Shown here: piece by piece, positions 2,262-37,005 of the stretch
Numbering within the stretch: the stretch's first letter is position 1
Layout of the letters: each line of letters opens with the position of its first letter
Assembly: GCA_023131835.1 (NCBI GenBank)
Contig: JAGLZA010000024.1
Coordinates: forward strand, 2,377 to 66,376
DNA: 64,000 bases
Direction of reading: 5' to 3'
Source of the DNA: a candidate division WOR-3 bacterium
GTDB lineage: Bacteria; Hydrothermota; UBA3072
Position numbers and translations under genes: made by a program
Notes under the pieces: generated by a model
What the model was told of the DNA's origin: nothing
The model's database searches: none
Seen by the model: only the letters and a program-made list of their open reading frames with translations

Positions 2262-3083
2262 TTACGCTTTTTCATTAATGTTTTTTAGAGAATCCTTATG
2301 TATTATATTTTTTGGTAAAAAACATTTGCCATCAGTAAGATAGTTAAGACTTACGGTGAAAAACTCTTCCCAATATTTGCGGTCTCCACTAGTTTTTGCG
2401 TGACAGCTTTTACACAATGGTACAAATAAGGGCTTCACGTCGTTACAGCAGACCATCTTGTTGTAGTTGACGTGGTGAACTGAAAGACGCTGTCCGTTAT
2501 CGGTTTCGTTTTTACCACATACATAACAGCATCTACCGAAGAAGTTTCGGACTCGCTCCTTAAATTCATTGTTGAATTTTATACAGTAAGGTTCGGATGA
2601 AATACCATCTTGCCAATTCCAGTGTTTTTCACCAGCCATTAAGTATCCTTTACCCCTCATTCCACTATTATCCCTCATATGTTGTTTATGTTCTTCTGAA
2701 TGTGGTTTACCTAAATGCGCATCTCTATTCTTTTGGTTAGATTCTTTAGTATGATGTTTACCATACATACCATGTTTCTCACCTGCAATTAAGTATCCTT
2801 TTCCATACATACCAGTTTCTTCACCTCTCTTACCAAACATTGGACATTTATCACCTGTCCTACCATACATAGGATTATTTTCATCAGAATGTTTCTTACA
2901 CCAACCTTCTGATACTATTAAGGCATTAGGGAATTGCTTTCTATATTCATGCATAGTTATACCGTGTGTTTTAAGGTGAGTAACTGTGATAAACTCAAAT
3001 TCTCTACCACAAATTTTACATTTAATTTTTGGTAGTATCCTATGGTTCTGCTCTTCTTCATCAAATGTTTTTTGAATAATCAT
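2262..3083 (-). CDS. HNH homing-endonuclease-like protein (HNH-1): N-terminal C2H2-like zinc finger, NUMOD3-like G(K/R)xG repeats, C-terminal HNH/zinc-binding nuclease motif.
   Basis: The N-terminus reads KCKICGREF...THLKTHG. Repeats NPMYGRTGDKCPMFGKRGEETGMYGKGY follow. The C-terminus reads CCYVCGKNETDNGQRLSVHHVNYNKMVCCNDVKPLFVPLCKSCHAKT, which is the HNH signature. The gene starts 8 nt after the stop of the 2518-aa gene. The C-terminal ~100 aa is near-identical to the paralogs at 10908 and 36052. Confidence 0.8.
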   Translation of the reverse strand: MIIQKTFDEEEQNHRILPKIKCKICGREFEFITVTHLKTHGITMHEYRKQFPNALIVSEGWCKKHSDENNPMYGRTGDKCPMFGKRGEETGMYGKGYLIAGEKHGMYGKHHTKESNQKNRDAHLGKPHSEEHKQHMRDNSGMRGKGYLMAGEKHWNWQDGISSEPYCIKFNNEFKERVRNFFGRCCYVCGKNETDNGQRLSVHHVNYNKMVCCNDVKPLFVPLCKSCHAKTSGDRKYWEEFFTVSLNYLTDGKCFLPKNIIHKDSLKNINEKA

Positions 3084-3091
3084 TTTTCCGC

Positions 3092-6000
3092 CTATTTATA
3101 CTCATAATCCGCTCCTCTATCTTCCTCTTTTTCGCCATATCCAAATTCTTCAGCAGCAATTCCAAAAATCTTTACTACTGCATAGATATAGATAATCACT
3201 GCCATAATTACCAGCAATAAACCTGCAAACTCGAACTCCAGGAGAGCTTCGGATATGTAACACTGGTAGCCGAGCATAAGGAATATTGTGGGTGAAATAA
3301 ACAACATAACTATATCCATATAGAAATCATACCCTACTTCTAACAAACCCAGCACCAAAAAAATAAATGCTAGCACTACAAAAATCCCAAATATCATACT
3401 TGTTCCTATCATTTCGTTCTCCTCAATTAATTGTTTATTTTGGTTATATATAAAGGTTAGTTGTTCTAATATATCTCCATACTCTTCCTCACCAATTGTT
3501 ACAGTCCACGTGACCGTGTTTGAAGTTCCGTTTGTGTTCGTCCCATAGACAGAGACGGTTTTCGTGCCATTTGATGTCCAATTTAAAGTTATGTTATCAT
3601 AATTATGATTTTGATCTATCCCATCCTTTTTCCAAGTCCATGTAATTATGGTTTGGTCTGCTACTGCACTAAAGTTTATTGCTGCTTGAGAAAGATTAAC
3701 TTGAAAACTTATTACACCGTCACCCGTAATGTTATTGTACCACGAAGTAATTGAAGGAGCAGCTACCGATTCGGTTAGTGTGATATTCTGATTGGTTTTA
3801 TCCACCCCGTTTACTGTTACTGTCGTTGAATTTGGTATGTATCCATCCTTGGTTGCGGTTAGAAGATAAGTATCGTTTGCTATACCTTCCAGTTTGTAAT
3901 ATCCTGTTGCATCAGTGTTATCATTTACGCCTGTTAGATTGTTCGTTACATGTGCCGTTTGAAGCGGTGCTCCCGTTGTATTTATCACGTAACCGCTAAT
4001 ATTATAAGTAACAAGAGGAACACCAATTTCAAATGTACCTGTTACCCAACTACTAAATTCGTAATTATCTTTTGTTCTTACTTGAACATAATAAGTTATT
4101 CCTTCACTTAAACCTGAACCAGCATAAGTTGCTGATGTAGCTGAGCTTGCTACTTGTCCGCTGTTCCACATATCGCTTGCACCCACATCTAACCCTACAT
4201 AAACCTGATAATGAGATTGTGTATCTCCTTCATCATCGGAATATGTCCACGAAAAATCGGGAGTATAATCACTTATGTCTGTTGGATTAGTTTGTCCTTC
4301 TGTCAAAAGGTTTGTTGTCATAGGTTCACTATTCATTCTAAATTCATCAGCAGTAGTATAATTACTCCACAATGAACCATCATAACTTCTCAATCTGTAA
4401 TAATAGGTTGTTCCGTCGGAAAGGGGTATAGTATTGCCCAAATTACATGTCTCACTTGTTGTATGCGTTTCGTTATCAGTCGGAGTGCTGGTTGTTCCTA
4501 CATAAACATAAGTTGTAACGGTATCACCATCTGCATCTGTACCTTTAGTCCATGTAATAGTTGGTGTGTGGTCAGTTAGATTCATACCTAAATCAGTCCA
4601 TCCTGTTGGTACGGTAGGTGCATTATTAGGTATCTGTGTGTTCTGTGAAATAAATGAAGATAAATTCCCAGTAGTAGCGTTATATCCAGCAACTGATATG
4701 TTACTCCATACGTGAGGCAATAAACCCGTATTATTGTAATATGTATTTGATGAGTCATTTGTCCAGCTATTATTTACTGAAACATTAAAAGTATCTGTAT
4801 TTATTCCTGTGTCCCAAGTATGATTTATCCAAAAATTACCAGTTGTATTTTGAAGGTTAGTTGGTGTCCCAGGTTCCGCACCACTTACCGTTATAGTCAT
4901 AGTGTAATTATCATAGCTACCATAACCGTCTGATACACCAAAATCAACATAATAAATACCTTCTACCGAAGTCCAGTTGCCTATCCCTGTTACAGTAGAA
5001 AAATCTGTAAACAAATCAGTTCTATTACATGAGAATGTTGGGGTATCGCTATCAGTATCTGTAGCATCATAATCTACATAAACATTTTGAGTTTTAAATC
5101 CAGTCCAATCTGAAATATTTGTTATTGTTATTGGATTGTTTGGTATTTGAACATTGTCCGATACATTTCCAGAACTTAATGTTCCGTTATCGCTGGAATT
5201 AAATGCCCATACACTGATATTAGACCACCCGTGTGGACTCATCCCAGAGCCATTGTAAAATGTATTTGTAGTGTTGTACCATGAATTGTTTACAGAAACA
5301 TTATAACTATCCGTTACGTAACCATCACTTCCATTATCCCATGTGTGATTAACATAAAAATTACCTGTAGTGTTCTGGAGATTTATCGGATCAGGTGGTG
5401 TAAATATTAATACAGTAACATTACTATAAGTTGGTGTTGTTGCATTAAAATAATGTGTTGTGTTGTAAAATCTAACAGTGTAATTATAAATACCTGCTGT
5501 ACTTTCGTTCCACGTAAAATTAACATAATCAACAACAGAAGAATTAGTACTTATAATATTTCCATCTTCTAATAGGTCTGCTAAACCGTAGAACGTGTCA
5601 CTATATTCCTCTATTAGACTTGCATTGATAAAGAAATCAACATTCTTACCAACGGATTGAGTACCATTACTATCCATAGTTGCAGTATTGTTTCTTTTCG
5701 TTATCTCATAATAAAATGAAGATGTGTCGTTATTAGCACTTGGAGTACTAGAATTTAAGTAGATTGTCACAGAAACATTAGTAACTGGTGAACCTACATT
5801 GTGTGATTCATTTGCCCATTCATCAAGGGTCAGATTCAAGTTTCCGAAACTTTTATTAGTAAATTCTGCATTAGTAAAATTCATCCAGACATTTGAGGCG
5901 TTGGCTACAGTTACATCTGCTGAAAAGTTTGAACTCCAATCTTGCCCCCAATCTTGTTTAACATTGGAGACGTTGCCTATTGTTAGAACAGGTGGTAAAA

Positions 6001-9000
6001 CTGTTACATTACTATAGTTCGAGGTTGTGACATTATTATAATGTGTTAGATTATAAAAACGAACTGTATAGTTATAAGTACCGACTGAACTTTCATTCCA
6101 TGTAAAGTTAACATAGTCAATAATTGATGAATTAGTTGAGATGACTGATCCATCCTCTAATAAATCCGCTGCACCGTAAAAGGTATCACCATACTCTTCT
6201 ATTAGACTCGCATTAATAAAGAAATCTCGATAGATTCCTATGTTTTGCGTAGCATTACTATCCATAGTAGCAGTGTTATTTCGTTTTGTAATTTCATAGT
6301 AAAACGATACCGTACCATTAATACTGCCAGGAGTACTCGAATTTAGAGAAACATTTACTGAGATATTAATAATGGGTGATTCGATATTATGTGACTCATT
6401 TACCCATTCATCAATAGAAGTATTAAGCCATCCTAAGCTGGTATTTGTAAAGTTATTATGTGAAAAATTCATCCAGGTATCTTTAGCATTTTGTCCAAGA
6501 ACATGGGCACTGAAATTTGAGTTCCAGTCTTGACCCCAGTCTTTTTTTATATTTTGCTCACCACTGATAGTGAGCGAAAGTGTAGGTGGATTAATTGTAA
6601 AATTAACATCTAACCATGTTATTGTACTAACACCTTCATCATCAGTAGCGTTTACTTGTAGTGTGAAATTATCAACTTCAGAATAGTAAGAAGAACTATC
6701 AAATGATATATTAATAAACATATTATCTCTCATAGTATCATTAAAAGTATTATTTATGATTGCAACAAAAGTTCTGTTTCCGTAGTGTAAAGTGAGGTTG
6801 TGTGATACATCTCCATCATCTGGATCTGATGCCAGTGCAATTCCAATATCAAAAGTCCCTGAATATGTATGATTCATCTCTAGATCTTTCTCGTCTTGGT
6901 AATAAAAATAAACAATACCAGGCTTTGTGGGTGGAAAGTAAGCCTTCTCTATATCAGTTGTATTTATTGTACTGTTTGTCCATGTTCCAACATTATCAGC
7001 AATATAAAGTTGATGTTTGAACTGATGTCCTCTATGTCTGTCTGAAACAAATGCATTTGTTGTATATAGATTCTCAATTAAAGGAGCATTATCACCTATC
7101 CAAGTTACATTACATTCACCAAAGGTACGGTTTGTTGAGGTAGGATCATTTGTCATATTCAAAGAATAAGGTTTCGATTGGGATGTTTCTGTATTAAAGC
7201 ATACCCACGCAGTGTTTGTTGTATTAATACCAGCATCTACAATAGCTGATTGATTTATGCTAAATGCTTTGATATAAGATGAATTTCTAACATTATATAA
7301 ATAATCAACCCATGTACTTGCATTATGTTCAGTTACAAAGAATCCATAAGGTGAATCTTCTGGATTTACAGAACCTTCTGGATCATAGCTACTATTTAGA
7401 TAATATAAAAAGATAGGCTTACTTGGCACACTTCCACCAAAATGAGTATCTAAGTAGAAGTTAAAAAGATAATCATGGTGATCATAGAATGTCTCTAAAT
7501 TCCATATTTTAATACAAGGTCTGCTACTCTTATGAATATCTAAATTCGTCATTGTAGCATTTTGTTGCTCTTCTCTATTTAGATACCACATATTTATAGA
7601 TGCAGTATCTCTTATAGTTCCATTCCAGTGGATTAAGGTATATGTGGAGTTTACAGGTTCAATAGTTAGTCTTGTAGTATTCTCATCTCCACCTCCCCAT
7701 TCATATACGTTTCCTCTTGTAATAGTTGCATTATCTTCAAAATTTAGTGTATAATTTCGATTATCTGCTCTTAAAATGTGCTCTCCTATTATAAATTCTA
7801 ATGCACTACGGTTATTAGATGGAACTCGTATGGAGTGGTTATATGTACCATCTATTGGATTATAAACAGTATAGATAAATGAAACTGAAGTATTATTCAG
7901 ACCACCGCTACCATGACTAATACCATAAGTAATATTCAAATTTCCAGTTGAATTTTGGTATAAAATAGAAGGGTCTTGTGATAGGAGGGTTATTGTGGGT
8001 GGCGGGATAGTTACATTACTATAAGTCGGTGTCGTGGCATTAAAATAGTAAGTGGTGTTATAGAATCTTACTGTATAATTGTACTGTCCAGCAGTACTTT
8101 CGTTATGTGTAAAATTTACATAATCAGTAACAGTGGAATTTGTTAGAACTACTGCTCCGTCTTCAAGTAAATCAGCAGCTCCGTAGAATGTATCCGAGTA
8201 TTCTTCATTAAGAGTAGCGTTGATAAAGAAGTCTTGATCAGTGTATGACATACTTTGTATAGCGGCACTATCCATTGTGGCTGTGTTGTTTCTCTTGGTA
8301 ATTTCATAAAAGAAGGTGTCACTATCATTTGCAGCTCCTAAAGCAGTTGATGTTAATTCCACAGTAACGGAAACATTAGTAACTGGAGCAGTGACATTAT
8401 GGGATTCATTTACCCATTCATCCAGAGTGCGATTTAACCATCCCAAACTTGTATTTGTAAATTCGGCATTGGTAAAGTTCATCCATACCTCGGATGCATT
8501 TGCCCCTGTTACATTAGCACTAAAATTGGAGTTCCAGTCACGCCCCCAATCTTCCTCATAGTTCTGAATGTTACCAGTTGTTAATGTTGGTCCTACAACA
8601 GTCACATTTGAATACCCAGAAGTAGTATTATCATAGTGAGTAAGATTATAAAACCTTACGGTATAATTGTAAACACCTACGGTGCTTTCGTTCCACGTGA
8701 AATTAACATAATCAACTATGGATGAATTAGTGGATATAGTTACGCCATCTTCTAAGAGATCCGCTGCACCATAGAATGTGTCTCCATACTCCTCATTACA
8801 AGTGGCATTAATATAGAAATTATCGTTTATACCTACGGTTTGCGTTGCAGAAGAATCCATCGTAGCGGTATTGGTTCGATTGGTTATCTCATAATAGAAG
8901 GTATCAGTATCGTTGGTTACTCCAACAGTGGTTGAATTAAGGTAAATTGTTACTGAGATGTTTGTTATTGGAGTATCAATATTATGTGATTCGTTCACCC

Positions 9001-10648
9001 ATTCATCTATAGTAAGATTTAAGTTACCTAAGCTGGTGTTTGTGAAGTCAGTATGAGTAAAGTTCATCCAAACATTTGAGGCATTGGCAACTGTAACATT
9101 TGCTGAGAAGTTTGAGCTGAAGTCTTGTCCCCAGTCGTGTTTATAGTTTTGGATGTTGGATGTTGTTAGGGTTGGTACTGCTGATGATTCTTCAGTGCCA
9201 GTGTAAGTGGTTGGCTCTGGCGAGGCGTATTTGCGGACGAGAACTTGATCCAAATAAGCAACATAAGTACTACCACCATATAGGCAGGAATAATAAAATT
9301 TATCGAATTGAATTAATGATTCATATAATACCTCTCCACCTGAAAGCTTGCTATCTCCATCCACCAGGATGTCATAATAAGTATCGTCCACTCCTGTTGC
9401 TTTTACCTCTATTTCATACCATTGATTTGCGGAAATACTTTGTAATAACGTCTCCCCACCATTTGTATAATAATATATTTGAGTACCTGCATTAAATAAA
9501 ATTCCAGCGTCTCCCTGCCCACCCGATTTAATATCTTCGCCCACATGGATACTTGAATATCCTGAAGTTCCCATTCTTGCCCAACACTTAAACGCTATCC
9601 CAGCGGTAATCGGAGAAAAGGAGTGATATGCATATAAACCCGGTGAGCCTGATTGTTGTCCTGTATCGTCAAGTTTCAAACTCTTCGTGCCGAATTTCGC
9701 GTAATCGTCCGAAACTCTTATGGTTCCTACATCATCATTACATGTCCAACCAGATGGGCAATTACCAACTGTTCCATCCTCAAAATCATCAAAGAACTCA
9801 AAGGTGTTGGTGCCGTTGGAGGCGGAACTCGCAGAAGGGTTGCCATAGTACATCTCCGTGGTGTCATTTGACCATCCCCCACCAGCGATGTAGGTGCCAT
9901 TGAACCACACCAAGCACCAGTTGCTGTCTGACTTGTCTTCGATCCAATACGCCTCCTCCGTGCCAGCGGATACATTCACAAAGCGCAAATCGTCAAAATC
10001 CACCTGCATATCTGCATCATAGGTGACATTGAGTGACACCTGATAATGCGACAGAGCGGAGCCACCCGTGTTATTGATACAGACGGGGGCTTTCTTTGTC
10101 CAGGTGGCGTTCCACCATGTCAATTCAGATCCCTCAATCCCTCCAAACATCGGAATGGTCTGAATAGAAAAAGCACCAATCTCTGCCTTCTTATGAAACA
10201 CCAGCTTTAAATTATACACTTCATTAGTTTTTATAGTTTTTCCATGTGGGTTGAATTGTTTCCAATGATACTTTGTTTCCTCATTTTGATTAATTATAAT
10301 ATTATAAGGTTTTTCAACAAACCATTCTACATAATCAATACTATTTCTGCCTTTATGCTTTATCCACCGTGTTTTGAAGTCACTTGAATCATTAAATGTG
10401 TAATCAACATAAGACGTGAACGTATAATATTCTGTAAAAGTTGTTAAGCCAGATTCTGTTTTAGTTAGTTGTATCTTAGTTTCAAGTTTATCGCGAAATA
10501 TAAAATTATCCTTATAGATAGATATGGTCTTTGATTCGGGATTAAATTGTTTATAGTGTGTGGTATCGCTAAATATACCTGCTTGGACAGGCGAAATTAG
10601 CAAAAATGCTATAAGTGCAATTATCCCGATTGCTATTATTTTTCTCAT
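3092..10648 (-). CDS. Giant (2518 aa) secreted, heavily N-glycosylated surface/adhesin-like protein with internal repeats and a multi-TM C-terminal anchor.
   Basis: Signal peptide MRKIIAIGIIALIAFLLISPVQA. NxS/T sequons are very dense. Four copies of a ~196-aa repeat are present. Further domains are FN3/PKD-like (NxTW...FNVSVNNSW), a CarbopepD_reg-like segment (GYVINTTGAPL...TDATGYYKLEG) and an acidic calcium-site-like stretch. The C-terminus has several hydrophobic helices. Confidence 0.85.
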   Translation of the reverse strand: MRKIIAIGIIALIAFLLISPVQAGIFSDTTHYKQFNPESKTISIYKDNFIFRDKLETKIQLTKTESGLTTFTEYYTFTSYVDYTFNDSSDFKTRWIKHKGRNSIDYVEWFVEKPYNIIINQNEETKYHWKQFNPHGKTIKTNEVYNLKLVFHKKAEIGAFSIQTIPMFGGIEGSELTWWNATWTKKAPVCINNTGGSALSHYQVSLNVTYDADMQVDFDDLRFVNVSAGTEEAYWIEDKSDSNWCLVWFNGTYIAGGGWSNDTTEMYYGNPSASSASNGTNTFEFFDDFEDGTVGNCPSGWTCNDDVGTIRVSDDYAKFGTKSLKLDDTGQQSGSPGLYAYHSFSPITAGIAFKCWARMGTSGYSSIHVGEDIKSGGQGDAGILFNAGTQIYYYTNGGETLLQSISANQWYEIEVKATGVDDTYYDILVDGDSKLSGGEVLYESLIQFDKFYYSCLYGGSTYVAYLDQVLVRKYASPEPTTYTGTEESSAVPTLTTSNIQNYKHDWGQDFSSNFSANVTVANASNVWMNFTHTDFTNTSLGNLNLTIDEWVNESHNIDTPITNISVTIYLNSTTVGVTNDTDTFYYEITNRTNTATMDSSATQTVGINDNFYINATCNEEYGDTFYGAADLLEDGVTISTNSSIVDYVNFTWNESTVGVYNYTVRFYNLTHYDNTTSGYSNVTVVGPTLTTGNIQNYEEDWGRDWNSNFSANVTGANASEVWMNFTNAEFTNTSLGWLNRTLDEWVNESHNVTAPVTNVSVTVELTSTALGAANDSDTFFYEITKRNNTATMDSAAIQSMSYTDQDFFINATLNEEYSDTFYGAADLLEDGAVVLTNSTVTDYVNFTHNESTAGQYNYTVRFYNTTYYFNATTPTYSNVTIPPPTITLLSQDPSILYQNSTGNLNITYGISHGSGGLNNTSVSFIYTVYNPIDGTYNHSIRVPSNNRSALEFIIGEHILRADNRNYTLNFEDNATITRGNVYEWGGGDENTTRLTIEPVNSTYTLIHWNGTIRDTASINMWYLNREEQQNATMTNLDIHKSSRPCIKIWNLETFYDHHDYLFNFYLDTHFGGSVPSKPIFLYYLNSSYDPEGSVNPEDSPYGFFVTEHNASTWVDYLYNVRNSSYIKAFSINQSAIVDAGINTTNTAWVCFNTETSQSKPYSLNMTNDPTSTNRTFGECNVTWIGDNAPLIENLYTTNAFVSDRHRGHQFKHQLYIADNVGTWTNSTINTTDIEKAYFPPTKPGIVYFYYQDEKDLEMNHTYSGTFDIGIALASDPDDGDVSHNLTLHYGNRTFVAIINNTFNDTMRDNMFINISFDSSSYYSEVDNFTLQVNATDDEGVSTITWLDVNFTINPPTLSLTISGEQNIKKDWGQDWNSNFSAHVLGQNAKDTWMNFSHNNFTNTSLGWLNTSIDEWVNESHNIESPIINISVNVSLNSSTPGSINGTVSFYYEITKRNNTATMDSNATQNIGIYRDFFINASLIEEYGDTFYGAADLLEDGSVISTNSSIIDYVNFTWNESSVGTYNYTVRFYNLTHYNNVTTSNYSNVTVLPPVLTIGNVSNVKQDWGQDWSSNFSADVTVANASNVWMNFTNAEFTNKSFGNLNLTLDEWANESHNVGSPVTNVSVTIYLNSSTPSANNDTSSFYYEITKRNNTATMDSNGTQSVGKNVDFFINASLIEEYSDTFYGLADLLEDGNIISTNSSVVDYVNFTWNESTAGIYNYTVRFYNTTHYFNATTPTYSNVTVLIFTPPDPINLQNTTGNFYVNHTWDNGSDGYVTDSYNVSVNNSWYNTTNTFYNGSGMSPHGWSNISVWAFNSSDNGTLSSGNVSDNVQIPNNPITITNISDWTGFKTQNVYVDYDATDTDSDTPTFSCNRTDLFTDFSTVTGIGNWTSVEGIYYVDFGVSDGYGSYDNYTMTITVSGAEPGTPTNLQNTTGNFWINHTWDTGINTDTFNVSVNNSWTNDSSNTYYNNTGLLPHVWSNISVAGYNATTGNLSSFISQNTQIPNNAPTVPTGWTDLGMNLTDHTPTITWTKGTDADGDTVTTYVYVGTTSTPTDNETHTTSETCNLGNTIPLSDGTTYYYRLRSYDGSLWSNYTTADEFRMNSEPMTTNLLTEGQTNPTDISDYTPDFSWTYSDDEGDTQSHYQVYVGLDVGASDMWNSGQVASSATSATYAGSGLSEGITYYVQVRTKDNYEFSSWVTGTFEIGVPLVTYNISGYVINTTGAPLQTAHVTNNLTGVNDNTDATGYYKLEGIANDTYLLTATKDGYIPNSTTVTVNGVDKTNQNITLTESVAAPSITSWYNNITGDGVISFQVNLSQAAINFSAVADQTIITWTWKKDGIDQNHNYDNITLNWTSNGTKTVSVYGTNTNGTSNTVTWTVTIGEEEYGDILEQLTFIYNQNKQLIEENEMIGTSMIFGIFVVLAFIFLVLGLLEVGYDFYMDIVMLFISPTIFLMLGYQCYISEALLEFEFAGLLLVIMAVIIYIYAVVKIFGIAAEEFGYGEKEEDRGADYEYK
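5400..6580 (-). repeat. Second tandem pair (copies 3-4) of the same ~590-bp coding repeat. Boundaries are approximate.
   Basis: Protein repeats ...NIKKDWGQDWNSNFSAHV... and ...NVKQDWGQDWSSNFSADV.... The offset from copies 1-2 is about 2.6 kb. Confidence 0.55.
8000..9180 (-). repeat. Tandem pair (copies 1-2) of a ~590-bp intragenic coding repeat in the 2518-aa gene. Boundaries are approximate, +/-60 bp.
   Basis: Protein repeats begin NIQNYKHDWGQDFSSNFSANVT... and NIQNYEEDWGRDWNSNFSANVT.... The antisense track ORFs 8316..8561 and 5799..6017 give similar translations, which confirms DNA-level repetition. Confidence 0.6.
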
Positions 10649-10651
10649 TTA

Positions 10652-10894
10652 TCATCGTGTGATCGCTACGAAAGTAAAAAGCACAATTATTACTATGATT
10701 ACTACTATTAATAGAGGGAGATTCGACATTATGCTGAATGCTCCTGTTGTTACATTTTTAGATGTCTCAAAGCTCTGACTAAGTGTAGGATCTTCACTTG
10801 CGTTTATACTAGAATTTGCACTGTCTATAAGGGTTGTAATTGAACTCATAGAAAAAAATATTAACATTGTAACCCCAATCAAGAGAAAAACCAT
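10652..10894 (-). CDS. Small (80 aa) two-TM membrane protein immediately upstream of the giant gene.
   Basis: Hydrophobic N- and C-terminal segments. The stop lies 4 nt before the giant gene's ATG. Confidence 0.45.
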   Translation of the reverse strand: MVFLLIGVTMLIFFSMSSITTLIDSANSSINASEDPTLSQSFETSKNVTTGAFSIMSNLPLLIVVIIVIIVLFTFVAITR

Positions 10895-10907: not shown

Positions 10908-11774
10908 TTAATTTTTATTCACCTCCTTTGGTATGAAACACTTACCATCAGTTAGATAGTTTAGACTTACGGTGAAAAACTCTTCCCAATATTTGCGGTC
11001 TTTTTGGGTTTTTGCGTGACAACTTATGCATAGGGGTACGAACAATGGTTTCACGTCATTACAACATACCATCTTGTCGTAGCTTACGTGGTAGACCGAA
11101 AGATGCCGTCTGTTTTCTGTTTCGTTCTTACCACATATATAACAGCATCTATCAAAGAAATTGCGAACTCGTTCTCTGAGGTCATCATCAAATTTTATAC
11201 AGTAAGGCTCAAATGAGATGCCTCCTTTCCATGAAGAATGATTTTTGCCTCTATTATTTTCATCTAACCATTGTTGACCTTCTTCTGTAGCATAAAATTC
11301 AGTTTTAGTTTTACTGCTTTTTTCAGCTGCTTTCCTAATTCCTTCATCTGTCTCTTTAGTTTTACCATGCATATGATTATTTTCACCTAATTGAGCTTTA
11401 CTCTGCTTCTGCTTAGCCTCTTCTGTTTGGTGCTTACCAAACATAGGATGGTCTTTGCCATATCTATGAACACCAAACATAGGATGGTCTTTACCTGTAG
11501 GATATTTACCAAACCTTGGATTATCTTTACCAGTTTTTCCATAATTTGGATGATTTTTACCTGAATTATCCCAATGATTATCTCTCAATTTTTGTTTATA
11601 ACTATCTGATACTAATAAAGCATCTGGAAACTGTTCTCTATACTCACTCATAGTTGTACCATGTGTTTTGAGGTGAGTATTTGTAATTTGCTCAAATTCC
11701 TCACCACAAATTTTACATCTAATTCTTATTGTTCCCTTAATAAATTTACTATCTAAAGTTTGTTGATTACTCAT
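10908..11774 (-). CDS. HNH homing-endonuclease-like protein (HNH-2), paralog of 2262..3083.
   Basis: N-terminus RCKICGEEFEQITNTHLKTHG. G-K-rich NUMOD3-like repeats follow. The C-terminal HNH module CCYICGKNETENRRHLSVYHVSYDKMVCCNDVKPLFVPLCISCHAKT is nearly identical to HNH-1 and HNH-3. Confidence 0.8.
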   Translation of the reverse strand: MSNQQTLDSKFIKGTIRIRCKICGEEFEQITNTHLKTHGTTMSEYREQFPDALLVSDSYKQKLRDNHWDNSGKNHPNYGKTGKDNPRFGKYPTGKDHPMFGVHRYGKDHPMFGKHQTEEAKQKQSKAQLGENNHMHGKTKETDEGIRKAAEKSSKTKTEFYATEEGQQWLDENNRGKNHSSWKGGISFEPYCIKFDDDLRERVRNFFDRCCYICGKNETENRRHLSVYHVSYDKMVCCNDVKPLFVPLCISCHAKTQKDRKYWEEFFTVSLNYLTDGKCFIPKEVNKN

Positions 11775-13073: not shown

Positions 13074-13440
13074 AATGCTTGATGGAACGATTAAATAGTA
13101 GTTGGATACCTCCAAGGAAGTAGATTACCCAAATCCCCGTCTGCATTATCGCAACCAACGCAAGCGGCATCCCGAGCTTTTCGAATAGGATAGGAGCTAT
13201 CCAGACAATACCAAGCAAACCTCCTGTAATTAGCTGGAGTCCACTTACGAGCATCGATCCCATTGAGAACTGTTCATCATATTTTGTGATGTCTCCAGAG
13301 GGATCATAGCCTGTTAGTTTCTCTATTTCAGCTGTCTGGTCTTCTAAAGCAAGTTGTGTGGGGAACATCTCAAGAGAATCAACAAGTCCAATACAACTCG
13401 TCAACAAAATACAAAAAAGTGCAAGATCGTATGCCTTCAC
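13066..13440 (-). CDS. Small membrane protein (124 aa).
   Basis: N-terminal signal/TM and a C-terminal hydrophobic segment. Sits between the Vsr-like gene and the FN3-like gene. Confidence 0.45.
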   Translation of the reverse strand: MKAYDLALFCILLTSCIGLVDSLEMFPTQLALEDQTAEIEKLTGYDPSGDITKYDEQFSMGSMLVSGLQLITGGLLGIVWIAPILFEKLGMPLALVAIMQTGIWVIYFLGGIQLLFNRSIKHYE

Positions 13441-14654
13441 CGCTCTCCCTCCTTCTTTTCACTATCTACCCACCTATCTAATATTTTTTGAGGGATTACA
13501 TAATCACTCTCTTTTCCGTGAAATTTTAAGATCTTTTGTATCATTGTATCTCTATTTTTAAGTTCGTGTTCCCAAATTACTAATAGATCCCATCCGCATT
13601 TTTTAAATAAGTCTATTCGTATTTGTGGATCTTCTCCTTCATGCCAATAATCGCCAAATAAGTCGATAGCTTTTTTCTTTCCGTTTACGTTTACGAAATC
13701 AGGGATTTTACCGCCTATAGATATTCCCAAATCGTAGTTTCCGTTGTATTTGTATTCGTTAGGGATTAGGTTTTGGACTATACTGTCTGTATCTTTTTCT
13801 GGTTGTGTTGGCTTTCTATTATAAACACCTTTTTTAAGGTTTTCAATTATAATTTCTCTTAAATTTTGTCTGTGCTTTATTCCTTTTTCAGTCTGATAAT
13901 ATTCCTTTTTTGCCTTACTCATCATTTTGATAAATTCTGGGTCTTGCCAGTTTTCAAGCATTCTTTTACTTCGTTTTAAACCTTGTTCCTTTAACAATAA
14001 CTTACCTTCTTCTGTCTGATAAAAAACAATCTTTTTTTTACTTATTATCTGTTTAGATTCGTCTGTATGTTTATGACCAAAAAAATGATTTGCTTCTCCC
14101 TTAGTATCCATAACACTTAATGTTTTTTTAATTTTTTCTATTGTCTCTTCTGTTTGATTTTTTCCATAAAATGGATTTCCTTCTCCACTATATTTTTCAT
14201 TTTTTTGTTCCTTAAGCTTAATACCTTCTTCTGTTTGATAAAAACTTAGTAATGACTCACTAACTTGCATTAATCCTGGATCAGTTTCTTTTGTTTTTCC
14301 TTTACACCATACTTCATCAATTTCACCGTTTACATACCTTTCTTTATAAGTTTCACCTTGTTTCTTTACTCTATCATCATTTTCTTTAGTTAATCCTTTG
14401 TTCCATGCAACCCTACCTCTGTTTTGATGTCCAGCAATATATTTACTCCCTTTCCTAGATACCCTTCCACCACAACCACATTTGCAAAAAGGTAGTTCTG
14501 GTGGTAGTCTTTTGCCTTCTTTAATTTCTTTGTTTATTTTACGTGTTTCATTTCTCTTTCTTTTTATTTCTTCTGTAAGAATATAATGTCCCTGTATAAA
14601 TCTTCTTCCAGGACTTGCATATCCTCCGCATCCACATTCACATAATTTTTTCAT
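13437..14654 (-). CDS. Vsr-like (PD-(D/E)xK) endonuclease with N-terminal double zinc ribbon and NUMOD3 repeats (Vsr-1).
   Basis: The N-terminus has CECGCGG...GHYI and CKCGCGG...GHQNRGR. Repeated YQTEEG...NPFYGK.HTEE units (NUMOD3-like) follow. The C-terminus reads IDLFGDYWHEGED...GWDLLVIWEHEL, which resembles the Vsr/DUF559 nuclease core. The gene starts about 40 nt after the 1521-aa gene. Confidence 0.75.
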   Translation of the reverse strand: MKKLCECGCGGYASPGRRFIQGHYILTEEIKRKRNETRKINKEIKEGKRLPPELPFCKCGCGGRVSRKGSKYIAGHQNRGRVAWNKGLTKENDDRVKKQGETYKERYVNGEIDEVWCKGKTKETDPGLMQVSESLLSFYQTEEGIKLKEQKNEKYSGEGNPFYGKNQTEETIEKIKKTLSVMDTKGEANHFFGHKHTDESKQIISKKKIVFYQTEEGKLLLKEQGLKRSKRMLENWQDPEFIKMMSKAKKEYYQTEKGIKHRQNLREIIIENLKKGVYNRKPTQPEKDTDSIVQNLIPNEYKYNGNYDLGISIGGKIPDFVNVNGKKKAIDLFGDYWHEGEDPQIRIDLFKKCGWDLLVIWEHELKNRDTMIQKILKFHGKESDYVIPQKILDRWVDSEKKEGER

Positions 14655-14693
14655 ATTTATTACTCTATTTTTATTATATATAAACCTTATGTT

Positions 14694-22600: not shown

Positions 22601-22629
22601 GTTTTTTCACCTCCTATTTCTTTTTACTC
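22601..22629 (-). promoter_or_regulatory. Conserved extended leader/RBS element, copy 3.
   Basis: GTTTTTTCACCTCCTATTTCTTTTTAC on the plus strand. Confidence 0.5.
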
Positions 22630-23216: not shown

Positions 23217-23218
23217 AT

Positions 23219-23554
23219 TTACTTAAAAACATACAAAGGTACACTCTTATCACCAATAAACTTTATTAGTCTTTTTGGATCTACCGATGCTGTTATGTAT
23301 TTCACATTTGCTATTAAACCTTGTGTTTGATCATGGTATAAATTATATCTATTATTAGGTTGTCCATATCCTTTTGTCCCTGAACCCGCTATTAAGATAT
23401 AACCCTTACCTTTTGCTGTTCTTTTTTCGACTAAATTATATATCGTTCCATCTCTTTTCCATCCACTAACAAACTCGTTATTTTCTGGGTTTGATAGTTT
23501 TACTCTTGATTGTGTTGGTAAAACAAACCAATCATTCTTTCCATATCTTCTCAT
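23219..23554 (-). CDS. Hypothetical protein (111 aa).
   Basis: ORF from the track, tightly packed. Confidence 0.45.
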   Translation of the reverse strand: MRRYGKNDWFVLPTQSRVKLSNPENNEFVSGWKRDGTIYNLVEKRTAKGKGYILIAGSGTKGYGQPNNRYNLYHDQTQGLIANVKYITASVDPKRLIKFIGDKSVPLYVFK

Positions 23555-23581
23555 TTTTCTTATTTATCTCCTATTCTTTGT

Positions 23582-23887
23582 TCAATTATAATTAACATAC
23601 TCCTTTTTTGACCATTTAATTGTTTTATGTTTCTTCTTTAAAAGATCAACTATCCATCTATATTTTATTGGTACTTTAGACAAACTATATCTTCGTGAGT
23701 AACTCCTGTCAAACGAACCTACGATATAACTACTTCCAGAATATACCTCAACACCTTCGCTTTTTTTGTCGTTATCCCTTAAAGTATAGTATATGATCTC
23801 TTTTGTTTTTCTGTCTTCCTTTATTTTAGTTGATACTGCCTTATAATCCCAATTGGGATATCTCCTATGATATTTTTTGTATTCCAT
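23582..23887 (-). CDS. Hypothetical basic protein (101 aa).
   Basis: ORF from the track. The leader motif TTTTACCTCCTATTTCC lies upstream. Confidence 0.45.
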   Translation of the reverse strand: MEYKKYHRRYPNWDYKAVSTKIKEDRKTKEIIYYTLRDNDKKSEGVEVYSGSSYIVGSFDRSYSRRYSLSKVPIKYRWIVDLLKKKHKTIKWSKKEYVNYN

Positions 23888-23895
23888 TTTCTTTT

Positions 23896-24159
23896 TTACC
23901 TCCTATTTCCTCTCCTTTGTTTTTCTAATGCTTTTTTGATACTTGCTTGGCTCCTAAGTTCTGGTGACAATGCTTTAGAATATTTCTTACGTACTTCAAC
24001 GTATCTTGCTTCGTATTCGGCTTCTGCATAGGATACTAACTGATCTATTTCTTTTCTTAGGTCTCTGAAGTTTGCAGGTGCCATAAAGTATGCGTTTTTC
24101 TTTTCCATTATTCCTTTTATTTTAGATTTTATTTCAGCTTTGCTTTTTGTTAATACCAT
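23896..24159 (-). CDS. Hypothetical basic protein (87 aa).
   Basis: ORF from the track. GGAGGTAAAAA lies immediately upstream. Confidence 0.45.
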   Translation of the reverse strand: MVLTKSKAEIKSKIKGIMEKKNAYFMAPANFRDLRKEIDQLVSYAEAEYEARYVEVRKKYSKALSPELRSQASIKKALEKQRRGNRR

Positions 24160-24169
24160 TTTTTACCTC

Positions 24170-24349
24170 CTATTCTTCATTATTTTCTTCCTCTATAATA
24201 GACACCACAATGGAGGGTTCATCCTCTTCTCCAGCTCGTACTTCTATCTGTTTGGTCTTTATTGGTGCTATCTCTTCCAATTTGCGGTCGCTGCCTCTTA
24301 GTATGCGGGTTAGATACTTATCCACTCTTTTTATTACTTTTTCTGGCAT
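24170..24349 (-). CDS. Small acidic-tailed protein (59 aa), paralog of 30334..30489.
   Basis: Hand translation gives MPEKVIKRVDKYLTRILRGSDRKLEEIAPIKTKQIEVRAGEEDEPSIVVSIIEEENNEE. It shares ...EVRAG(D/E)E.EPSIV... with the 51-aa ORF at 30334. CAGGAGGAAAAATG RBS. Confidence 0.4.
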   Translation of the reverse strand: MPEKVIKRVDKYLTRILRGSDRKLEEIAPIKTKQIEVRAGEEDEPSIVVSIIEEENNEE

Positions 24350-24367
24350 TTTTCCTCCTGTTTTTTG

Positions 24368-24673
24368 TTATTCACCACCTGTCGAATCCCATCCCCTGCG
24401 GATCGCATTAACTACGCTCCAAACAAAAAGTGTAATGAGCATTATTATGGGAAATACCTCGAAAAAAAGATAAGAATCCGCTTGATTTCTGTGCACCTCT
24501 TCCATGTACTTATCTGGATTATCTTGCATATACTGATCCGTAAATTTTGATGTTTCTTCAACCATCGGACTTATACCCATCTGAATAATTGCAAAAAGAA
24601 CAATAGTTACGAAAACTACAAAAACAGAGAATGCAATCGATACTCCTTTTTTGTTTTCTATTAATCCTACCAT
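24368..24673 (-). CDS. Small two-TM membrane protein (101 aa), tandem paralog of 24726..25040.
   Basis: Shared NKKGVSI motif, TM helices at both ends and NPxxxM in the loop. Confidence 0.5.
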   Translation of the reverse strand: MVGLIENKKGVSIAFSVFVVFVTIVLFAIIQMGISPMVEETSKFTDQYMQDNPDKYMEEVHRNQADSYLFFEVFPIIMLITLFVWSVVNAIRRGWDSTGGE

Positions 24674-24725
24674 CTTTTTTTGTTTTTTCGTCTCTTAGTC
24701 CTCCTTTTTTTTCTTTATAATATTT

Positions 24726-25040
24726 TTACCGATAAAAAGTTTTATATTCTTTACGGATACTTGTGATAAATAACCAAATCACCAAACCAAGGCAAATTAT
24801 GAATGTAGAGGCAGAATAAAATTTTAATGAATCATTAAGACTAGTCCTCCATATACCCATATTTTCCGAAGGATTTTCTGCCATATACGAATTAGAGAAC
24901 GATACAACTTCTTGTAATACTGGTCCTAAACTCATATTTATGATTATAATACAGATCAAAAGTAAGAAGGTTATAAAAATTGACAAAACAATTGAAACTC
25001 CTTTTTTATTTTTAATCAATCTTTTTAGTTCCTTTGTCAT
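24726..25040 (-). CDS. Small two-TM membrane protein (104 aa), tandem paralog of 24368..24673.
   Basis: See the preceding feature. Confidence 0.5.
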   Translation of the reverse strand: MTKELKRLIKNKKGVSIVLSIFITFLLLICIIIINMSLGPVLQEVVSFSNSYMAENPSENMGIWRTSLNDSLKFYSASTFIICLGLVIWLFITSIRKEYKTFYR

Positions 25041-25043
25041 TAT

Positions 25044-26114
25044 TTATATCACTCCCTCCTTTCTTAATAGACTTAATACAAACTCTTCACCTTCTGGTCT
25101 CATGATATCACTTTCCCATATAAAAATTACTTTCCATTTATATCTTCTATAATGTTTCTCTCTGTTTTTTAAGTCATCAAAATGAACTCTCTTATTAAAT
25201 AATGCACTATGCCAATAATCACCTAATATTTCTATTACTATTTTCCTACCGTTACATTCTATAAAATCAGGATTTACTAATTTTTCCTTCCCTATCCAGA
25301 GTTGTCCATCTCCTACATACCTAAATGGTAAATTATACTTTTGACAAATTTCTTGAAAAAATAATTCTATATTTGTAGGTTTTCTATTAAGATCACCATT
25401 TTTTAATCTTTTTACTAATGCCTCTCTATTCTTTTGTCTTGTTTCTTTACTACGTTTTTTACCTTTTAATTTCTCACCATATTTTCTTATTCTTATGTCA
25501 GTATATTTAGTCTCTCCCTTATTCCATATCTCTATTTCCCCATTAGCAAACTTTTTTTTCTTTACTTCGCTATTTCTTTCTCCTGAAATCCTTGCTATTT
25601 TTGGATCCTTCATTGGATTATTTTTTTCGTCTTTCCATCTTTCAGATTTTTGTTTTTTTAATTTATCTCCTTCTTCAGTTTGATAAAAATCATTTAAACC
25701 ATTACTAATGTCATTTTTAAGACTATCATCTAAAACCTTTCCTAAATTAATATCTCTTAAATATTCTTTTACCTCTTCTGTATGTTTATGTCCATAAAAA
25801 CCATTATTTTTACCTTTTGTATTATGACCATATATAAATCTATTTCCAGGTTTGGTTACTCTCTGTCCACAACCGCATTCACAAAAAGGTAATACTGGAG
25901 CTGGTTGCTTACCCTCTCTAATCTCTTTATTTATTCTTTGTGTTTCTTTTCCTTTTTGAATCGCTTCTTTAGAAAGTTTTCTACCTCTATTTTGGTGTCC
26001 ATTAATATACCTATTTCCATGTTTTGCCTCTCCTCCACATCCACACTCACATAGTGACATTTTTACATCTCCCAAAAAAATCCTTTTATGTCTTTCATCT
26101 TTTAATAAATACAC
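25044..26114 (-). CDS. Vsr-like endonuclease with N-terminal double zinc ribbon and NUMOD3-like repeats (Vsr-2).
   Basis: CECGCGG...GHQNRGR and CECGCGQ...GH ribbons. NGFYGHKHTEE and YQTEEG repeats. C-terminal IEILGDYWHSALFNKR...KWKVIFIWESDI nuclease core. The gene starts about 25 nt after the 1211-aa gene. Confidence 0.75.
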   Translation of the reverse strand: MYLLKDERHKRIFLGDVKMSLCECGCGGEAKHGNRYINGHQNRGRKLSKEAIQKGKETQRINKEIREGKQPAPVLPFCECGCGQRVTKPGNRFIYGHNTKGKNNGFYGHKHTEEVKEYLRDINLGKVLDDSLKNDISNGLNDFYQTEEGDKLKKQKSERWKDEKNNPMKDPKIARISGERNSEVKKKKFANGEIEIWNKGETKYTDIRIRKYGEKLKGKKRSKETRQKNREALVKRLKNGDLNRKPTNIELFFQEICQKYNLPFRYVGDGQLWIGKEKLVNPDFIECNGRKIVIEILGDYWHSALFNKRVHFDDLKNREKHYRRYKWKVIFIWESDIMRPEGEEFVLSLLRKEGVI

Positions 26115-26138
26115 TTTGATATGTATAAAGGTTTGTCA

Positions 26139-35366: not shown

Positions 35367-35933
35367 TTATCTCTTCTTCCTCCTATTAAAAATTCCCCTT
35401 GCTCCTCTTTCCTCTGGCACAGCAGGACGCAGCGTCTGTTGGGTGCTCTCCATACGCTGGGTCTGCCAAAACGCTCTCTCTTTGGCGTTCAAGGCGCGGG
35501 GCAATTTTACATCCCCCTTGTGCGAGATTAACTGAAGAATCCTATAAACAATAGGATCGATACCTTCAGGTAGTTCAAGCAGTATGTAACTATCTACGAT
35601 TCGCTTGTTATCTAACAAAAGGTTTAACCATGCCATTCCAGGTATGTTACCATAAACACACTCTGGATCAATAAACGTCCTCGCATGTCTCATTAGCTTC
35701 TCCGCTTCATCTGCATTTAGCTTACCCGTGTCATACGCTCGCTTTATCTCTGTCTCTATACTCTGTAAAACTTCATCGAACTGGGTAGTTTGCTGGATTA
35801 ATCGTATGCCTTCACCTTCGTAACTAACCGACGGTTGTTTTATGTCTAGTGGTCCACCTTCTGCAGGTTCAGACATTACTTCGTCTTCTTCCTCTTCTTC
35901 AAGTTCTTCCTCTTCTGTTTCTTCTTCCGACAT
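35367..35933 (-). CDS. Hypothetical protein with a poly-Glu N-terminus (188 aa).
   Basis: ORF from the track. No recognisable domain. Confidence 0.5.
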   Translation of the reverse strand: MSEEETEEEELEEEEEDEVMSEPAEGGPLDIKQPSVSYEGEGIRLIQQTTQFDEVLQSIETEIKRAYDTGKLNADEAEKLMRHARTFIDPECVYGNIPGMAWLNLLLDNKRIVDSYILLELPEGIDPIVYRILQLISHKGDVKLPRALNAKERAFWQTQRMESTQQTLRPAVPEERGARGIFNRRKKR

Positions 35934-36051
35934 TTTATGGTCCTTAATAAAAATTGTATTAAATACCTCTATGTGTTATTTTTCAGATATGTTTAGGTAT
36001 TTAAAGGTTTCGGTTTGAGGGGCTATTCATTAGGAAGGAGATTGGGAAGTA

Positions 36052-37005
36052 TTAACCTTTTTTAGTTTCCTTCTTTGGTAAAAAGCATACACCGTCTGTT
36101 AGATATTCCAAACTTATGGTGAAGAACTCTTCCCAGTATTCACGGTCTTTAAGTGTCTTTGCGTGGCAACTTCTGCATAGGGGTACAAAAAGAGGCTTTA
36201 CATCATTGCAGCAAACCATTTTATCATAATTGACATGATGTACGTCGAGTTTACGTCCGAGTTCACTTTGTCCAACTCCGCATACGTAGCAACAACCGTT
36301 GAAAAAATCACGGACTCGTTCTTTGAGATCATCATCAAATTTTTCGCAGTACAGTCCAAACGAGATACCACCTTGCCATACAGGACTTTTTTCACCTGAC
36401 ATACCATACATATGGTTCTTTTCTCCTCTTTGAGATTCACCACTTTTATTTGCAACTATTGGATCTTTCATAGGATTTTTATCAGATGACATATAATCAC
36501 TACGATTTTGTCTAAATTCTATACTACTCATTGCCTCACTATGATTCTTTCTTATTATAGGATTACTCATAGGATTATTTTCACCTTTCATATTTTCAGA
36601 CCGCTGTTGCATAAACTTTATACCGTCCTCTGTTTGATAAAACTCCAAAAGAGAACCGCTCATTTTCTTTTTTGTATCCTCAGATGCTTTTAATCCTAAA
36701 TGATCCTCTCTAAGTTTCTCCCTTTGTTTTATTCCTTCTTCTGTTTCAAAAAATTCTTTTTTTGTTATACTTAAAGTTTCTCCATACTTCTTTACTCTAT
36801 TATCTGTCTCTTTTGTTTTACCAACATTCCATGGTTTTCTACCCTTCATTGAACCACTATGTTTCTGGTGTGACTCATCACTAACCATTTTTACATTAGG
36901 AAACCTTACCTTATATTCGTCATAGGTAATATTATGTGTTCTTAGATGATTCCCTGTAATACGATTAAATTCCTTCCCACAAATTAAACAAACCACTTTA
37001 CTCAT
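36052..37005 (-). CDS. HNH homing-endonuclease-like protein (HNH-3), first gene of the long minus-strand block.
   Basis: N-terminus VCLICGKEFNRITGNHLRTHN. NPM..P NUMOD3-like repeats follow. C-terminal CCYVCGVGQSELGRKLDVHHVNYDKMVCCNDVKPLFVPLCRSCHAKT. Confidence 0.8.
   Translation of the reverse strand: MSKVVCLICGKEFNRITGNHLRTHNITYDEYKVRFPNVKMVSDESHQKHSGSMKGRKPWNVGKTKETDNRVKKYGETLSITKKEFFETEEGIKQREKLREDHLGLKASEDTKKKMSGSLLEFYQTEDGIKFMQQRSENMKGENNPMSNPIIRKNHSEAMSSIEFRQNRSDYMSSDKNPMKDPIVANKSGESQRGEKNHMYGMSGEKSPVWQGGISFGLYCEKFDDDLKERVRDFFNGCCYVCGVGQSELGRKLDVHHVNYDKMVCCNDVKPLFVPLCRSCHAKTLKDREYWEEFFTISLEYLTDGVCFLPKKETKKG

Follow-up and report, generated by a model that had tools for sequence, protein, structure and literature searches.

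Six probable free-standing homing endonuclease genes of two catalytic families in a conserved gene block of a putative archaeal virus-like element

Six nuclease genes are distributed over a block of minus-strand genes (positions 2262-37005) in contig JAGLZA010000024.1, which stems from cold-seep sediment metagenomes of the South China Sea (PRJNA707313; PMC9357000). The whole stretch of 64,000 nt that was analysed is called the window below. Judged by their domains, their state as separate genes and their patchy occurrence, the six are likely to be selfish homing endonuclease genes (HEGs) that stand alone and belong to two catalytic families, residing in a block of envelope- or morphogenesis-like character. 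The domain identities, the free-standing state, the patchy occupancy of insertion slots, the replacement of one nuclease by another in the same slot, the shuffling of modules and an old divergence under purifying selection were all observed in the present comparison. An earlier, sequence-only reading of this DNA had already proposed homing endonucleases, and it is supported by the combination of HEG-type catalytic and DNA-binding modules in genes that stand alone and differ in occurrence between relatives.

Coordinates and junctions of the nuclease genes

The block 2262-37005 is a single run of ~36 genes, all on the minus strand. The HNH-type HEGs in it are N1 (2262-3083, 273 aa), N2 (10908-11774, 288 aa) and N6 (36052-37005, 317 aa), the last being the first gene of the block. 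The HEGs with a C-terminal domain of the EDxHD/Vsr-like type are N3 (13437-14654, 405 aa), N4 (25044-26060, 338 aa) and N5 (33117-34094, 325 aa). All six open reading frames (ORFs) are present on the minus strand as reported before, that of N4 extending from 25044 to a GTG at 26114. The start of N4 is most likely the ATG at 26060, because the encoded N-terminus, MSLCECGCGG, matches the starts of N3 and N5 and the same start was chosen in database gene calls (338 aa). With this start, N4 would begin 78 nt after the upstream gene, which encodes a protein of 1211 aa.

The distances to upstream genes given by the sequence-only reading are correct, i.e. 8 nt between the 2518-aa gene and N1, 39 nt between the 1521-aa gene and N3, 24 nt between the 1211-aa gene and the GTG start of N4, and 10 nt between the 252-aa gene and N5. 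In contrast, N2 had been placed directly upstream of the 2518-aa gene, which does not hold, because an 80-aa gene with two transmembrane (TM) segments (10652-10894) intervenes. The junctions of the nuclease genes are tight throughout, ranging from a 4-nt overlap to a 78-nt gap. In the related contig L004 the insertion is neat, with the nuclease start lying within an ATGA overlap with the upstream stop codon and the nuclease end lying one base before the next start. Group I and group II introns gave no Rfam signal at gathering or E-value thresholds. Intron-borne HEGs were rejected, as there is no intron signal and the nucleases are separate ORFs with their own starts. Searches with all six proteins (tblastn) revealed no further nuclease copies or fragments in the window, including the region from 37 to 64 kb.

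Catalytic domains of the Vsr type

N3, N4 and N5 share an N-terminus with two zinc motifs of the form CxCGCG..(Y/F)IxGH, which in N3 are accompanied by two NUMOD3 motifs. Their C-terminal domains contain the motifs PxxE, PDF, G(D)YWH and WE. When a profile of 19 members of this type was compared with the PDB, the catalytic domain of I-Bth0305I was found first (3r3p, E 2.3e-5), followed by Vsr of E. coli (1cw0, E 4e-4). An AF2 model (pLDDT 84.4) had 3r3p_B as its top Foldseek match (probability 1.00, TM-score 0.73, rmsd 3.5), and DUF559 (3hrl) and Vsr ranked below it. Three residues do not vary among the 19 sequences, namely the E of PxxE, the D of PDF and the H of DYWH, while the equivalent of Vsr D97 or I-Bth0305I D222 could not be placed with confidence. 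Some distant homologs of N3-N5 are assigned to DUF559 in Pfam or were named Vsr by their source.

The EDxHD family, of which I-Bth0305I is the prototype, comprises enzymes with N-terminal NUMODs and a C-terminal Vsr-like domain and includes the free-standing Hef of T4-like phages (PMC3239194). The label "Vsr-like" of the sequence-only reading is thus right, and the profile and fold matches to I-Bth0305I allow it to be sharpened to "EDxHD-type homing endonuclease".

Catalytic domains of the HNH type and shared DNA-binding modules

The proteins encoded by N1, N2 and N6 begin with a C2H2 finger that matches the Pfam family ROS_MUCR (for N6 with 28.3 bits and a cut-off of 25.4) and end with a module of ~110 aa that contains an invariant CxxC..H..CxxCH pattern (C42, C45, H60, C80, C83 and H84). 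In N1, which combines the Ros/MucR-like finger with NUMOD3, the pattern reads CxxC..HH..CxxCH. N2 has YH in place of HH, yet it retains the His that aligns with the catalytic His of the HNH domain of IscB. The modules match PHROG 8048, "HNH endonuclease", with E-values from 6.8e-7 to 3.5e-4. In Pfam, all matches of 16 members were below threshold, comprising DUF968 for 15 of them (best E 2e-5), HNH for eight (best 0.056) and Endonuclease_7 for seven. The best sequence match in the PDB is the HNH domain of IscB, with the catalytic His aligned (E 0.03). An AF2 model of the module (pLDDT 68) yielded HNH nucleases for all top fold matches, i.e. McrA (probability 0.94), Cap5, T4 Endo VII, IscB and Cas9. 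Taken together, the module of N1, N2 and N6 is predicted to contain a beta-beta-alpha-metal HNH core with the catalytic His and two Cys pairs. The division into three HNH and three Vsr-like genes, already made in the sequence-only reading, is therefore correct by profile and fold comparison, not by the curated thresholds of Pfam.

Homing-type repeats had been reported for all six proteins, and they were found: NUMOD3 scores above the Pfam cut-off in five of the six, and N4 contains a NUMOD3-like motif, GKNNGFYGHKHTEEVKE. The N-terminal module of N6 also matches genes for "Hef-like homing endonucleases" of Pseudomonas jumbo phages. Both nuclease types appear to share interchangeable N-terminal DNA-binding modules, made up of zinc motifs and NUMOD3 repeats. 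Chimeric genes in relatives (L004 5050-6150, L004 19486-20937, P0124 and P0024) join the Ros/MucR finger to a Vsr domain or the CxCGCG motif to HNH, indicating that DNA-binding and catalytic modules recombine between the two nuclease families.

Slot occupancy in related genomes

For comparison, the gene order of the window was aligned gene by gene with that of four related contigs (L004, L005, L009 and L011), and at least 11 nuclease slots were found in the five genomes. S1, upstream of g188, is filled in the window by the HNH-type N6 and in L004 and L011 by genes of the Vsr type; its flanks are 76-81% nt identical, so that nucleases of different catalytic type stand between the same neighbours. 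S2, at the g188-g252 junction, is filled in L011 and L009 (HNH) and empty in the window and L004. S3, between g252 and g123b, is filled in the window (N5) and L009 (HNH) and empty in L004 and L011; in L004 a homolog of N5 sits one gene further downstream. S4, at the g123b-g142 junction, is filled in L004 and empty in the window and L011. S5, between the 1211-type gene and g104, is filled in the window (N4) and empty in L004, L009 and L011. S6, between g104 and g101a, is filled in L005, L011 and L009 and empty in the window, and S7, after g101a, is filled in L005 and L004 and empty in the window and L011.

The slot S8, between the 1521-type gene and g124, is filled in the window (N3), L005 and L011 and is the only one kept in every genome in which it is visible (3/3). 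S9, at the g159-g80 junction, is filled in the window by N2, a gene that is absent at the same place in L005, where two genes of ~349 aa are found instead. S10, after the 2518-aa gene, is filled in the window by N1 and lies outside the region covered by the relatives, and S11, after AglB, is filled in L004. Because each of the slots that N5, N4 and N2 fill in the window is empty in at least one relative and the catalytic type is swapped in S1, the distribution has the patchiness that defines HEGs.

The genes g104 and g101a (24368-25040, minus strand), which encode paralogous small membrane proteins of ~100 aa, are accompanied by a Vsr-type nuclease gene before, between or after them in all five genomes, in four arrangements, and this pair is thus a hot zone of nuclease insertion. 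Their N-termini, KKGVSI followed by a hydrophobic stretch, look by eye like archaeal class III (type IV pilin) signal peptides, and a pilin-like reading has no support in Pfam.

The orthologs of N3 have diverged further than their surroundings, being 44-51% identical compared with 79-86% for neighbouring genes. The best segments shared with L004 and L005 have 82-93% nt identity and are not bounded by nuclease genes. A search of the same comparison for near-identical segments bounded by nuclease genes, as expected of "HEG islands", revealed none, the maximum being ~93% nt identity. Paralogs also occur in non-structural regions (L006, L012) and on unrelated contigs of mixed taxonomy. The HNH module is present on seven contigs of GTDB metagenome-assembled genomes (MAGs; L016-L022), which are assigned to Methanoregula (twice, L017 and L018), Paceibacterota, Dehalococcoidia, Saccharibacteria and Bacteroidales. 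The gene contexts there are unrelated to the window, and these are probably viral or mobile contigs that were binned with cells.

Divergence of the nuclease paralogs

The sequence-only reading had described the C-terminal nuclease modules as nearly identical between paralogs and had taken this as a sign of recent spread. The modules are not nearly identical. The HNH modules share 70-74% of amino acids and 71-80% of nucleotides, and the Vsr domains of N4 and N5 59% and 73%, respectively, while the Vsr domain of N3 has 34-36% amino acid identity with that of N4 or N5. The longest exact word common to any two nuclease genes has 39 nt. At synonymous sites the divergence has reached saturation (dS at least 1.6 or undefined), and dN of the HNH modules is 0.15-0.23. 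The saturated synonymous divergence contradicts a recent spread. The six genes are thus old paralogs or separate acquisitions under purifying selection and not the product of a recent burst.

Position relative to giant genes

Every giant surface-protein gene had been said to be followed by a nuclease gene. In the window this is true of all three genes of at least 1000 aa, whereas in the relatives only one of the four genes of this size directly precedes a nuclease gene. This one is the orthologous S8 slot, and the value is at chance level (P = 0.43). In the relatives and in another part of the same genome, the upstream neighbour is visible for 17 nuclease genes. These neighbours comprise one gene of at least 1000 aa, one for an adhesin of 734 aa and one for AglB of 760 aa, and all others encode 266 aa or less. 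Overall, ~20 nuclease genes were found in ~104 kb of module sequence from the five genomes, and only two in ~77 kb of non-module sequence, both of which had served to fetch those loci. The enrichment is a robust feature of the whole conserved module and not of the giant genes. A specific linkage of the nucleases to giant surface-protein genes is therefore not kept as a rule in the relatives; in the comparison of syntenic loci, the link to surface-protein genes is retained only in the slot after the 1521-aa-type gene (3/3). A nuclease gene lies within three genes of the 1211-type gene in all five genomes.

The description of the three genes as surface-protein genes also had to be revised in part. 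It fits the 2518-aa and the 1521-aa proteins, which are predicted to be glycosylated and membrane-anchored, and does not fit the 1211-aa protein, which lacks such features. The 2518-aa gene (3092-10648, minus strand) encodes a giant, glycosylated adhesin-like envelope or surface protein with a signal peptide, the domains DUF2341, Ig_Rha78A_N and CarboxypepD_reg, 158 NxS/T sequons, internal repeats and four C-terminal TM segments. The giant adhesin-like protein of 1521 aa (14694-19259, minus strand) has a signal peptide, CarboxypepD_reg and Ig-like domains, 47 sequons and three C-terminal TM segments; in relatives the ends of this gene are conserved and the middle is variable, with lengths of 1156 aa in L005 and 734 aa in L011. 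The giant protein of 1211 aa (26139-29774, minus strand) is rich in K and P and contains ~10 PPVT repeats near its C-terminus, and it lacks a signal peptide, TM segments and N-glycosylation sequons. It shares an N-terminal motif, D-T-D-x-D-G-V-x-N-I-x-D-C-x-P-L-D-P-T, with the product of g270 (21397-22209, minus strand). Its counterparts by position in relatives (1366, 1409 and 1128 aa) are non-homologous and have only this N-terminal motif in common with it.

The region between the giant genes and N3 and N4 contains elements that resemble archaeal promoters. A TATA-box-like element, GGTTTATATATA (14675-14686, minus strand), is centred ~27 nt upstream of the start codon of N3 and may represent an archaeal-type promoter of N3 itself. 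An element resembling a B recognition element (BRE) and TATA box, AACCTTTATACA (26122-26133, minus strand), lies between the 1211-aa gene and N4, and the same motif occurs upstream of g188 (35998-36009). With seven matches compared with 5.3 expected, AACCTTTATACA is not significant alone, and the promoter motif AACCTTTAWAYA showed no enrichment over shuffles, so that the promoters are putative. The position of the TATA-like elements suggests that they could mark boundaries of transcription units at which an insertion would be harmless.

Homing and alternative explanations

Cleavage and homing are predicted for the six nucleases. Upon co-infection or recombination with a related genome that lacks the HEG, the nuclease would cut near the empty slot. 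The HEG-bearing genome would then serve as repair template, and the HEG, along with part of its flanks, would be copied into the slot. As HEGs repeatedly invade, are lost and replace one another, each genome would end up with a different set of filled slots, and the conserved module may offer HEGs the most reliable target sequences. The adjacency of all three giant genes in the window to nuclease genes is best read as the combined outcome of chance, the long-held slot S8, and permissive intergenic boundaries that follow long genes and in part carry promoter-like elements.

Several results weigh against such an interpretation. No curated model of the HNH family (clan of PF01844) was passed by the module of N1, N2 and N6, and the only NCBIfam matches of the six nucleases were NUMOD matches to "group I intron endonuclease", all of them below threshold, with no HNH model passed. 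The fold matches of the HNH module have E-values of at least 0.045, none reaching 0.001 or less, and the Foldseek E-values of the Vsr type are all >0.001. The Pfam model Vsr (PF03852) gave 12.8 bits with a cut-off of 27, and DUF559 likewise stayed far below its cut-off. The relatives comprise four contigs from the same sampling site, each covering parts of the module. The three-of-three adjacency in the window has a P of 0.003 in gene-order shuffles, in a post hoc test, and in the relatives three of seven genes of at least 700 aa directly precede a nuclease gene (P = 0.05), so that the nucleases may indeed slightly prefer positions that follow long genes. The occupation of S8 in every genome seen would also fit a domesticated function.

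The adjacency might mean that the nucleases drive the exchange of neighbouring giant adhesin genes: cuts would stimulate recombination and co-conversion, host-range cassettes would be swapped, and the linkage would be selected. The low P value for the window fits this, as does the slot after the 1521-aa-type gene, which is kept in 3/3 genomes while the gene itself varies from 734 to 1521 aa, and the 1211-type gene has been replaced by non-homologous genes with a nuclease at most three genes away in 5/5 genomes. That HEGs co-convert flanking markers is established for T4, where the existence of "HEG islands" in phages has also been suggested (PMC10448857). Homing should in any case co-convert the sequence around it, so that some contribution to adhesin exchange is conceivable. 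However, the same adjacency is seen for one of four large genes in relatives, where small genes precede most nuclease genes. The part of the adhesin gene next to N3 is its conserved 3' end (70% nt identity with L005), which is no cassette boundary, and N4 lies within a segment that has diverged on both sides. Near-identical segments bounded by nucleases were not seen (maximum ~93% nt), the 1211-aa protein is no surface protein by its sequence, and the internal repeats of the 2518-aa gene can account for its variability without nucleases. We therefore regard nuclease-driven adhesin exchange as unlikely. A more elaborate version, in which an undescribed lineage of very large cold-seep archaeal viruses (~120-180 kb or more) with giant, heavily N-glycosylated and membrane-anchored adhesins would use its dense, rapidly changing array of EDxHD and HNH HEGs to exchange adhesin and pilin-like host-recognition genes between co-infecting relatives, appears quite unlikely; if it were true, a shuffling of host range by HEGs would be described for the first time in archaeal viruses.

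Some or all of the nucleases, above all the gene in S8, could instead have been domesticated by the element, e.g. for cutting the DNA of competitors or the host or for genome processing. The strong purifying selection on the HNH modules (dN/dS well below 1), the slot of N3 being filled in 3/3 genomes, and the TATA-like elements upstream of N3 and N4 are compatible with this, and HEG-related nucleases act in conflicts between viruses and between viruses and satellites (PMC10448857). However, active selfish HEGs are also expected to be under purifying selection, most slots are variably filled, and catalytic types are swapped in the same slot. The low identity of the N3 orthologs (44-51%) in comparison with their neighbours (79-86%) and the missing link to terminase or packaging genes also argue against domestication, which we judge to be very unlikely. 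The order of a giant surface-protein gene followed by a nuclease gene superficially resembles polymorphic-toxin cassettes, in which a nuclease toxin gene and downstream immunity genes would follow the surface-protein gene. The nucleases, however, are separate genes with long zinc and NUMOD3 DNA-reading regions instead of C-terminal toxin tips, no conserved small partner gene accompanies them, and the same nucleases are found away from any giant gene. Such cassettes are hardly credible here and were rejected.

Neighbouring genes and the host element

Besides the C2H2 fingers and g299, nearly all remaining genes of the block have no family match. The gene g299 (30973-31872, minus strand), which encodes a protein with a C2H2 finger and a Walker-A ATPase domain, shows the highest conservation within the module (86-93% aa identity in relatives) and serves as a marker of the lineage. 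Outside the lineage, its sole match in databases is a weak one (E 4e-6), to the "DnaA-like" ATPase of Haloferax lemon-shaped virus LSV-48N. The gene g252 (34105-34863, minus strand), directly upstream of N5, encodes a membrane protein with a TM segment at each end and is 72-78% identical in relatives. The 80-aa two-TM protein of g80 (10652-10894, minus strand), the gene between N2 and the 2518-aa gene, is 97.5% identical in L005; its size and layout recall those of the small, hydrophobic major virion proteins known from spindle-shaped archaeal viruses, a resemblance only.

Comparison of the neighbouring genes with Pfam and PHROGs yielded almost no matches, so that the module cannot be assigned to a known virion type. 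A tail module of a tailed phage with a tape-measure protein was considered and dropped, as there is no signal of terminase, portal, capsid, sheath or tube, and the 1211-aa protein was dropped as a tape measure because it lacks the features of one.

Outside the block, positions 40384-63994 (minus strand) contain a cluster of ~20 genes for polysaccharide or glycan biosynthesis, including a GT4 glycosyltransferase, a Wzx-type flippase, a methyltransferase and two radical SAM enzymes, one of them B12-binding. AglB/STT3 is encoded by relatives, and many glycosyltransferases are found in other parts of the element or its relatives (L006, L013, L004, L009). The position of the glycan cluster next to genes for sequon-rich adhesins (158 and 47 sequons) suggests that the element glycosylates its own surface proteins.

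At the start of the window (1-1000, minus strand), downstream of N1, lies a gene for a MoxR-type AAA_5 ATPase that is cut by the window edge. Beyond the window (L013 12022-15433 and 16821-18191), a 632-aa VWA-domain protein and a 456-aa protein of the RRXRR+HNH (IscB-like) type are encoded. MoxR and VWA genes also occur as a pair in the two-tailed archaeal virus ATV. Directly downstream of N1, at ~1430-2110, a stretch of ~0.7-0.9 kb is free of credible ORFs, and the same stretch occurs in L013 and L015; it matches no repeat family and no Rfam family.

N3 is deposited as a protein of a MAG of a "candidate division WOR-3 bacterium", and N3 and N4 were found on contigs of up to 180 kb. A further HNH paralog (P0082, same MAG) is carried by a contig of 180 kb, of which another 20 kb contain rows of tiny ORFs, YopX, RlaP and genes of thymidine hypermodification (ADDT, aGPT-Pplase3). 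The window itself contains no tRNA, rRNA or housekeeping genes. Judged by its gene content, it is probably part of a large archaeal virus-like element (~180 kb contig) that was mis-binned as WOR-3, although both its viral and its archaeal nature are inferred.

Relatives in databases are scarce. No match was found among 50,697 phage records, neither by megablast with 20000-37100 nor by tblastn with N5. A pattern scan of IMG/VR with g299 and two scans of JGI metagenome contigs with g299 alignments, the first of which used poor zinc-finger patterns, were also negative. A homolog search with g299 gave just two 90% clusters among 5.8 billion proteins, and thus databases hold no wider set of syntenic relatives; an exact look-up of g299 returned the same strain only. 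The orphan archaeal virus-like lineage is essentially absent from phage, IMG/VR and JGI collections.

Relation to known systems

The closest known counterparts of N3-N5 are the EDxHD enzymes I-Bth0305I of Bacillus phage 0305phi8-36 and Hef, which have the same order of an N-terminal NUMOD region and a C-terminal Vsr-like domain (PMC3239194). Hef of T4-related phages is free-standing, as are N3-N5. In contrast to these enzymes, N3-N5 have two CxCGCG..GH zinc motifs and NUMOD3 instead of NUMOD2, and they are located outside introns in an element of archaeal type. N3-N5 have the catalytic fold in common with Vsr and DUF559 proteins, as well as the motifs T-x-P-E, PDF, G-x-x-W-H and GW..L(V/I)(V/I)WE, but they differ from Vsr in having DNA-binding extensions of 200-300 aa, several patchy paralogs and no partner Dcm methylase. 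Together with the scores below the Pfam cut-off, these differences indicate that N3-N5 have a predicted Vsr-like active site but are not repair enzymes.

N1, N2 and N6 resemble the HNH HEGs of the I-HmuI type and the Mob HEGs of T4 in their HNH core with two CxxC pairs, in NUMOD3, in their free-standing state and in their patchiness. They differ from the I-HmuI type in the reversed domain order, with DNA binding at the N-terminus and HNH at the C-terminus, in an extra Ros/MucR-like C2H2 finger, and in a catalytic module that falls below the Pfam HNH cut-off and is closest to DUF968, Endo VII and the IscB-type HNH.

In large phages such as T4 and ICP1, HEGs cluster near structural or essential genes, undergo turnover at single loci and reshuffle their domains (Barth, Dunham and Seed 2023; PMC10448857), and closely related large phages can differ by ten HEGs near structural genes (PMC8778798). 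The proximity to structural genes, the presence of different HEGs at the same locus and the shuffling of modules are the same here (PMC10448857). Unlike T4 and ICP1, the element described here appears to be archaeal and has no recognisable tailed-phage genes, no near-identical "HEG islands" were seen, and its families are EDxHD and a divergent HNH type instead of T5orf172 and IPA-HNH.

The catalytic families, their behaviour and the genomic pattern are thus all known already. The block reveals no new mechanism and is an ordinary though dense case of HEG occupation. New are two architectures, i.e. a double CxCGCG zinc motif with NUMOD3 and an EDxHD domain, and a Ros/MucR finger with NUMOD3 and a C-terminal HNH, as well as the setting in an orphan archaeal virus-like lineage. 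If the interpretation as selfish HEGs is right, the block would be a clear natural case of HEG turnover outside the well-studied bacterial phages, with eleven slots, two catalytic families and swapped DNA-binding modules across five related genomes. The free-standing EDxHD-type genes with zinc motifs and NUMOD3 could be mined as long-target nucleases. The host element, an orphan archaeal virus-like genome of large size that carries glycosylation genes of its own, is probably of greater interest than the nuclease pattern.

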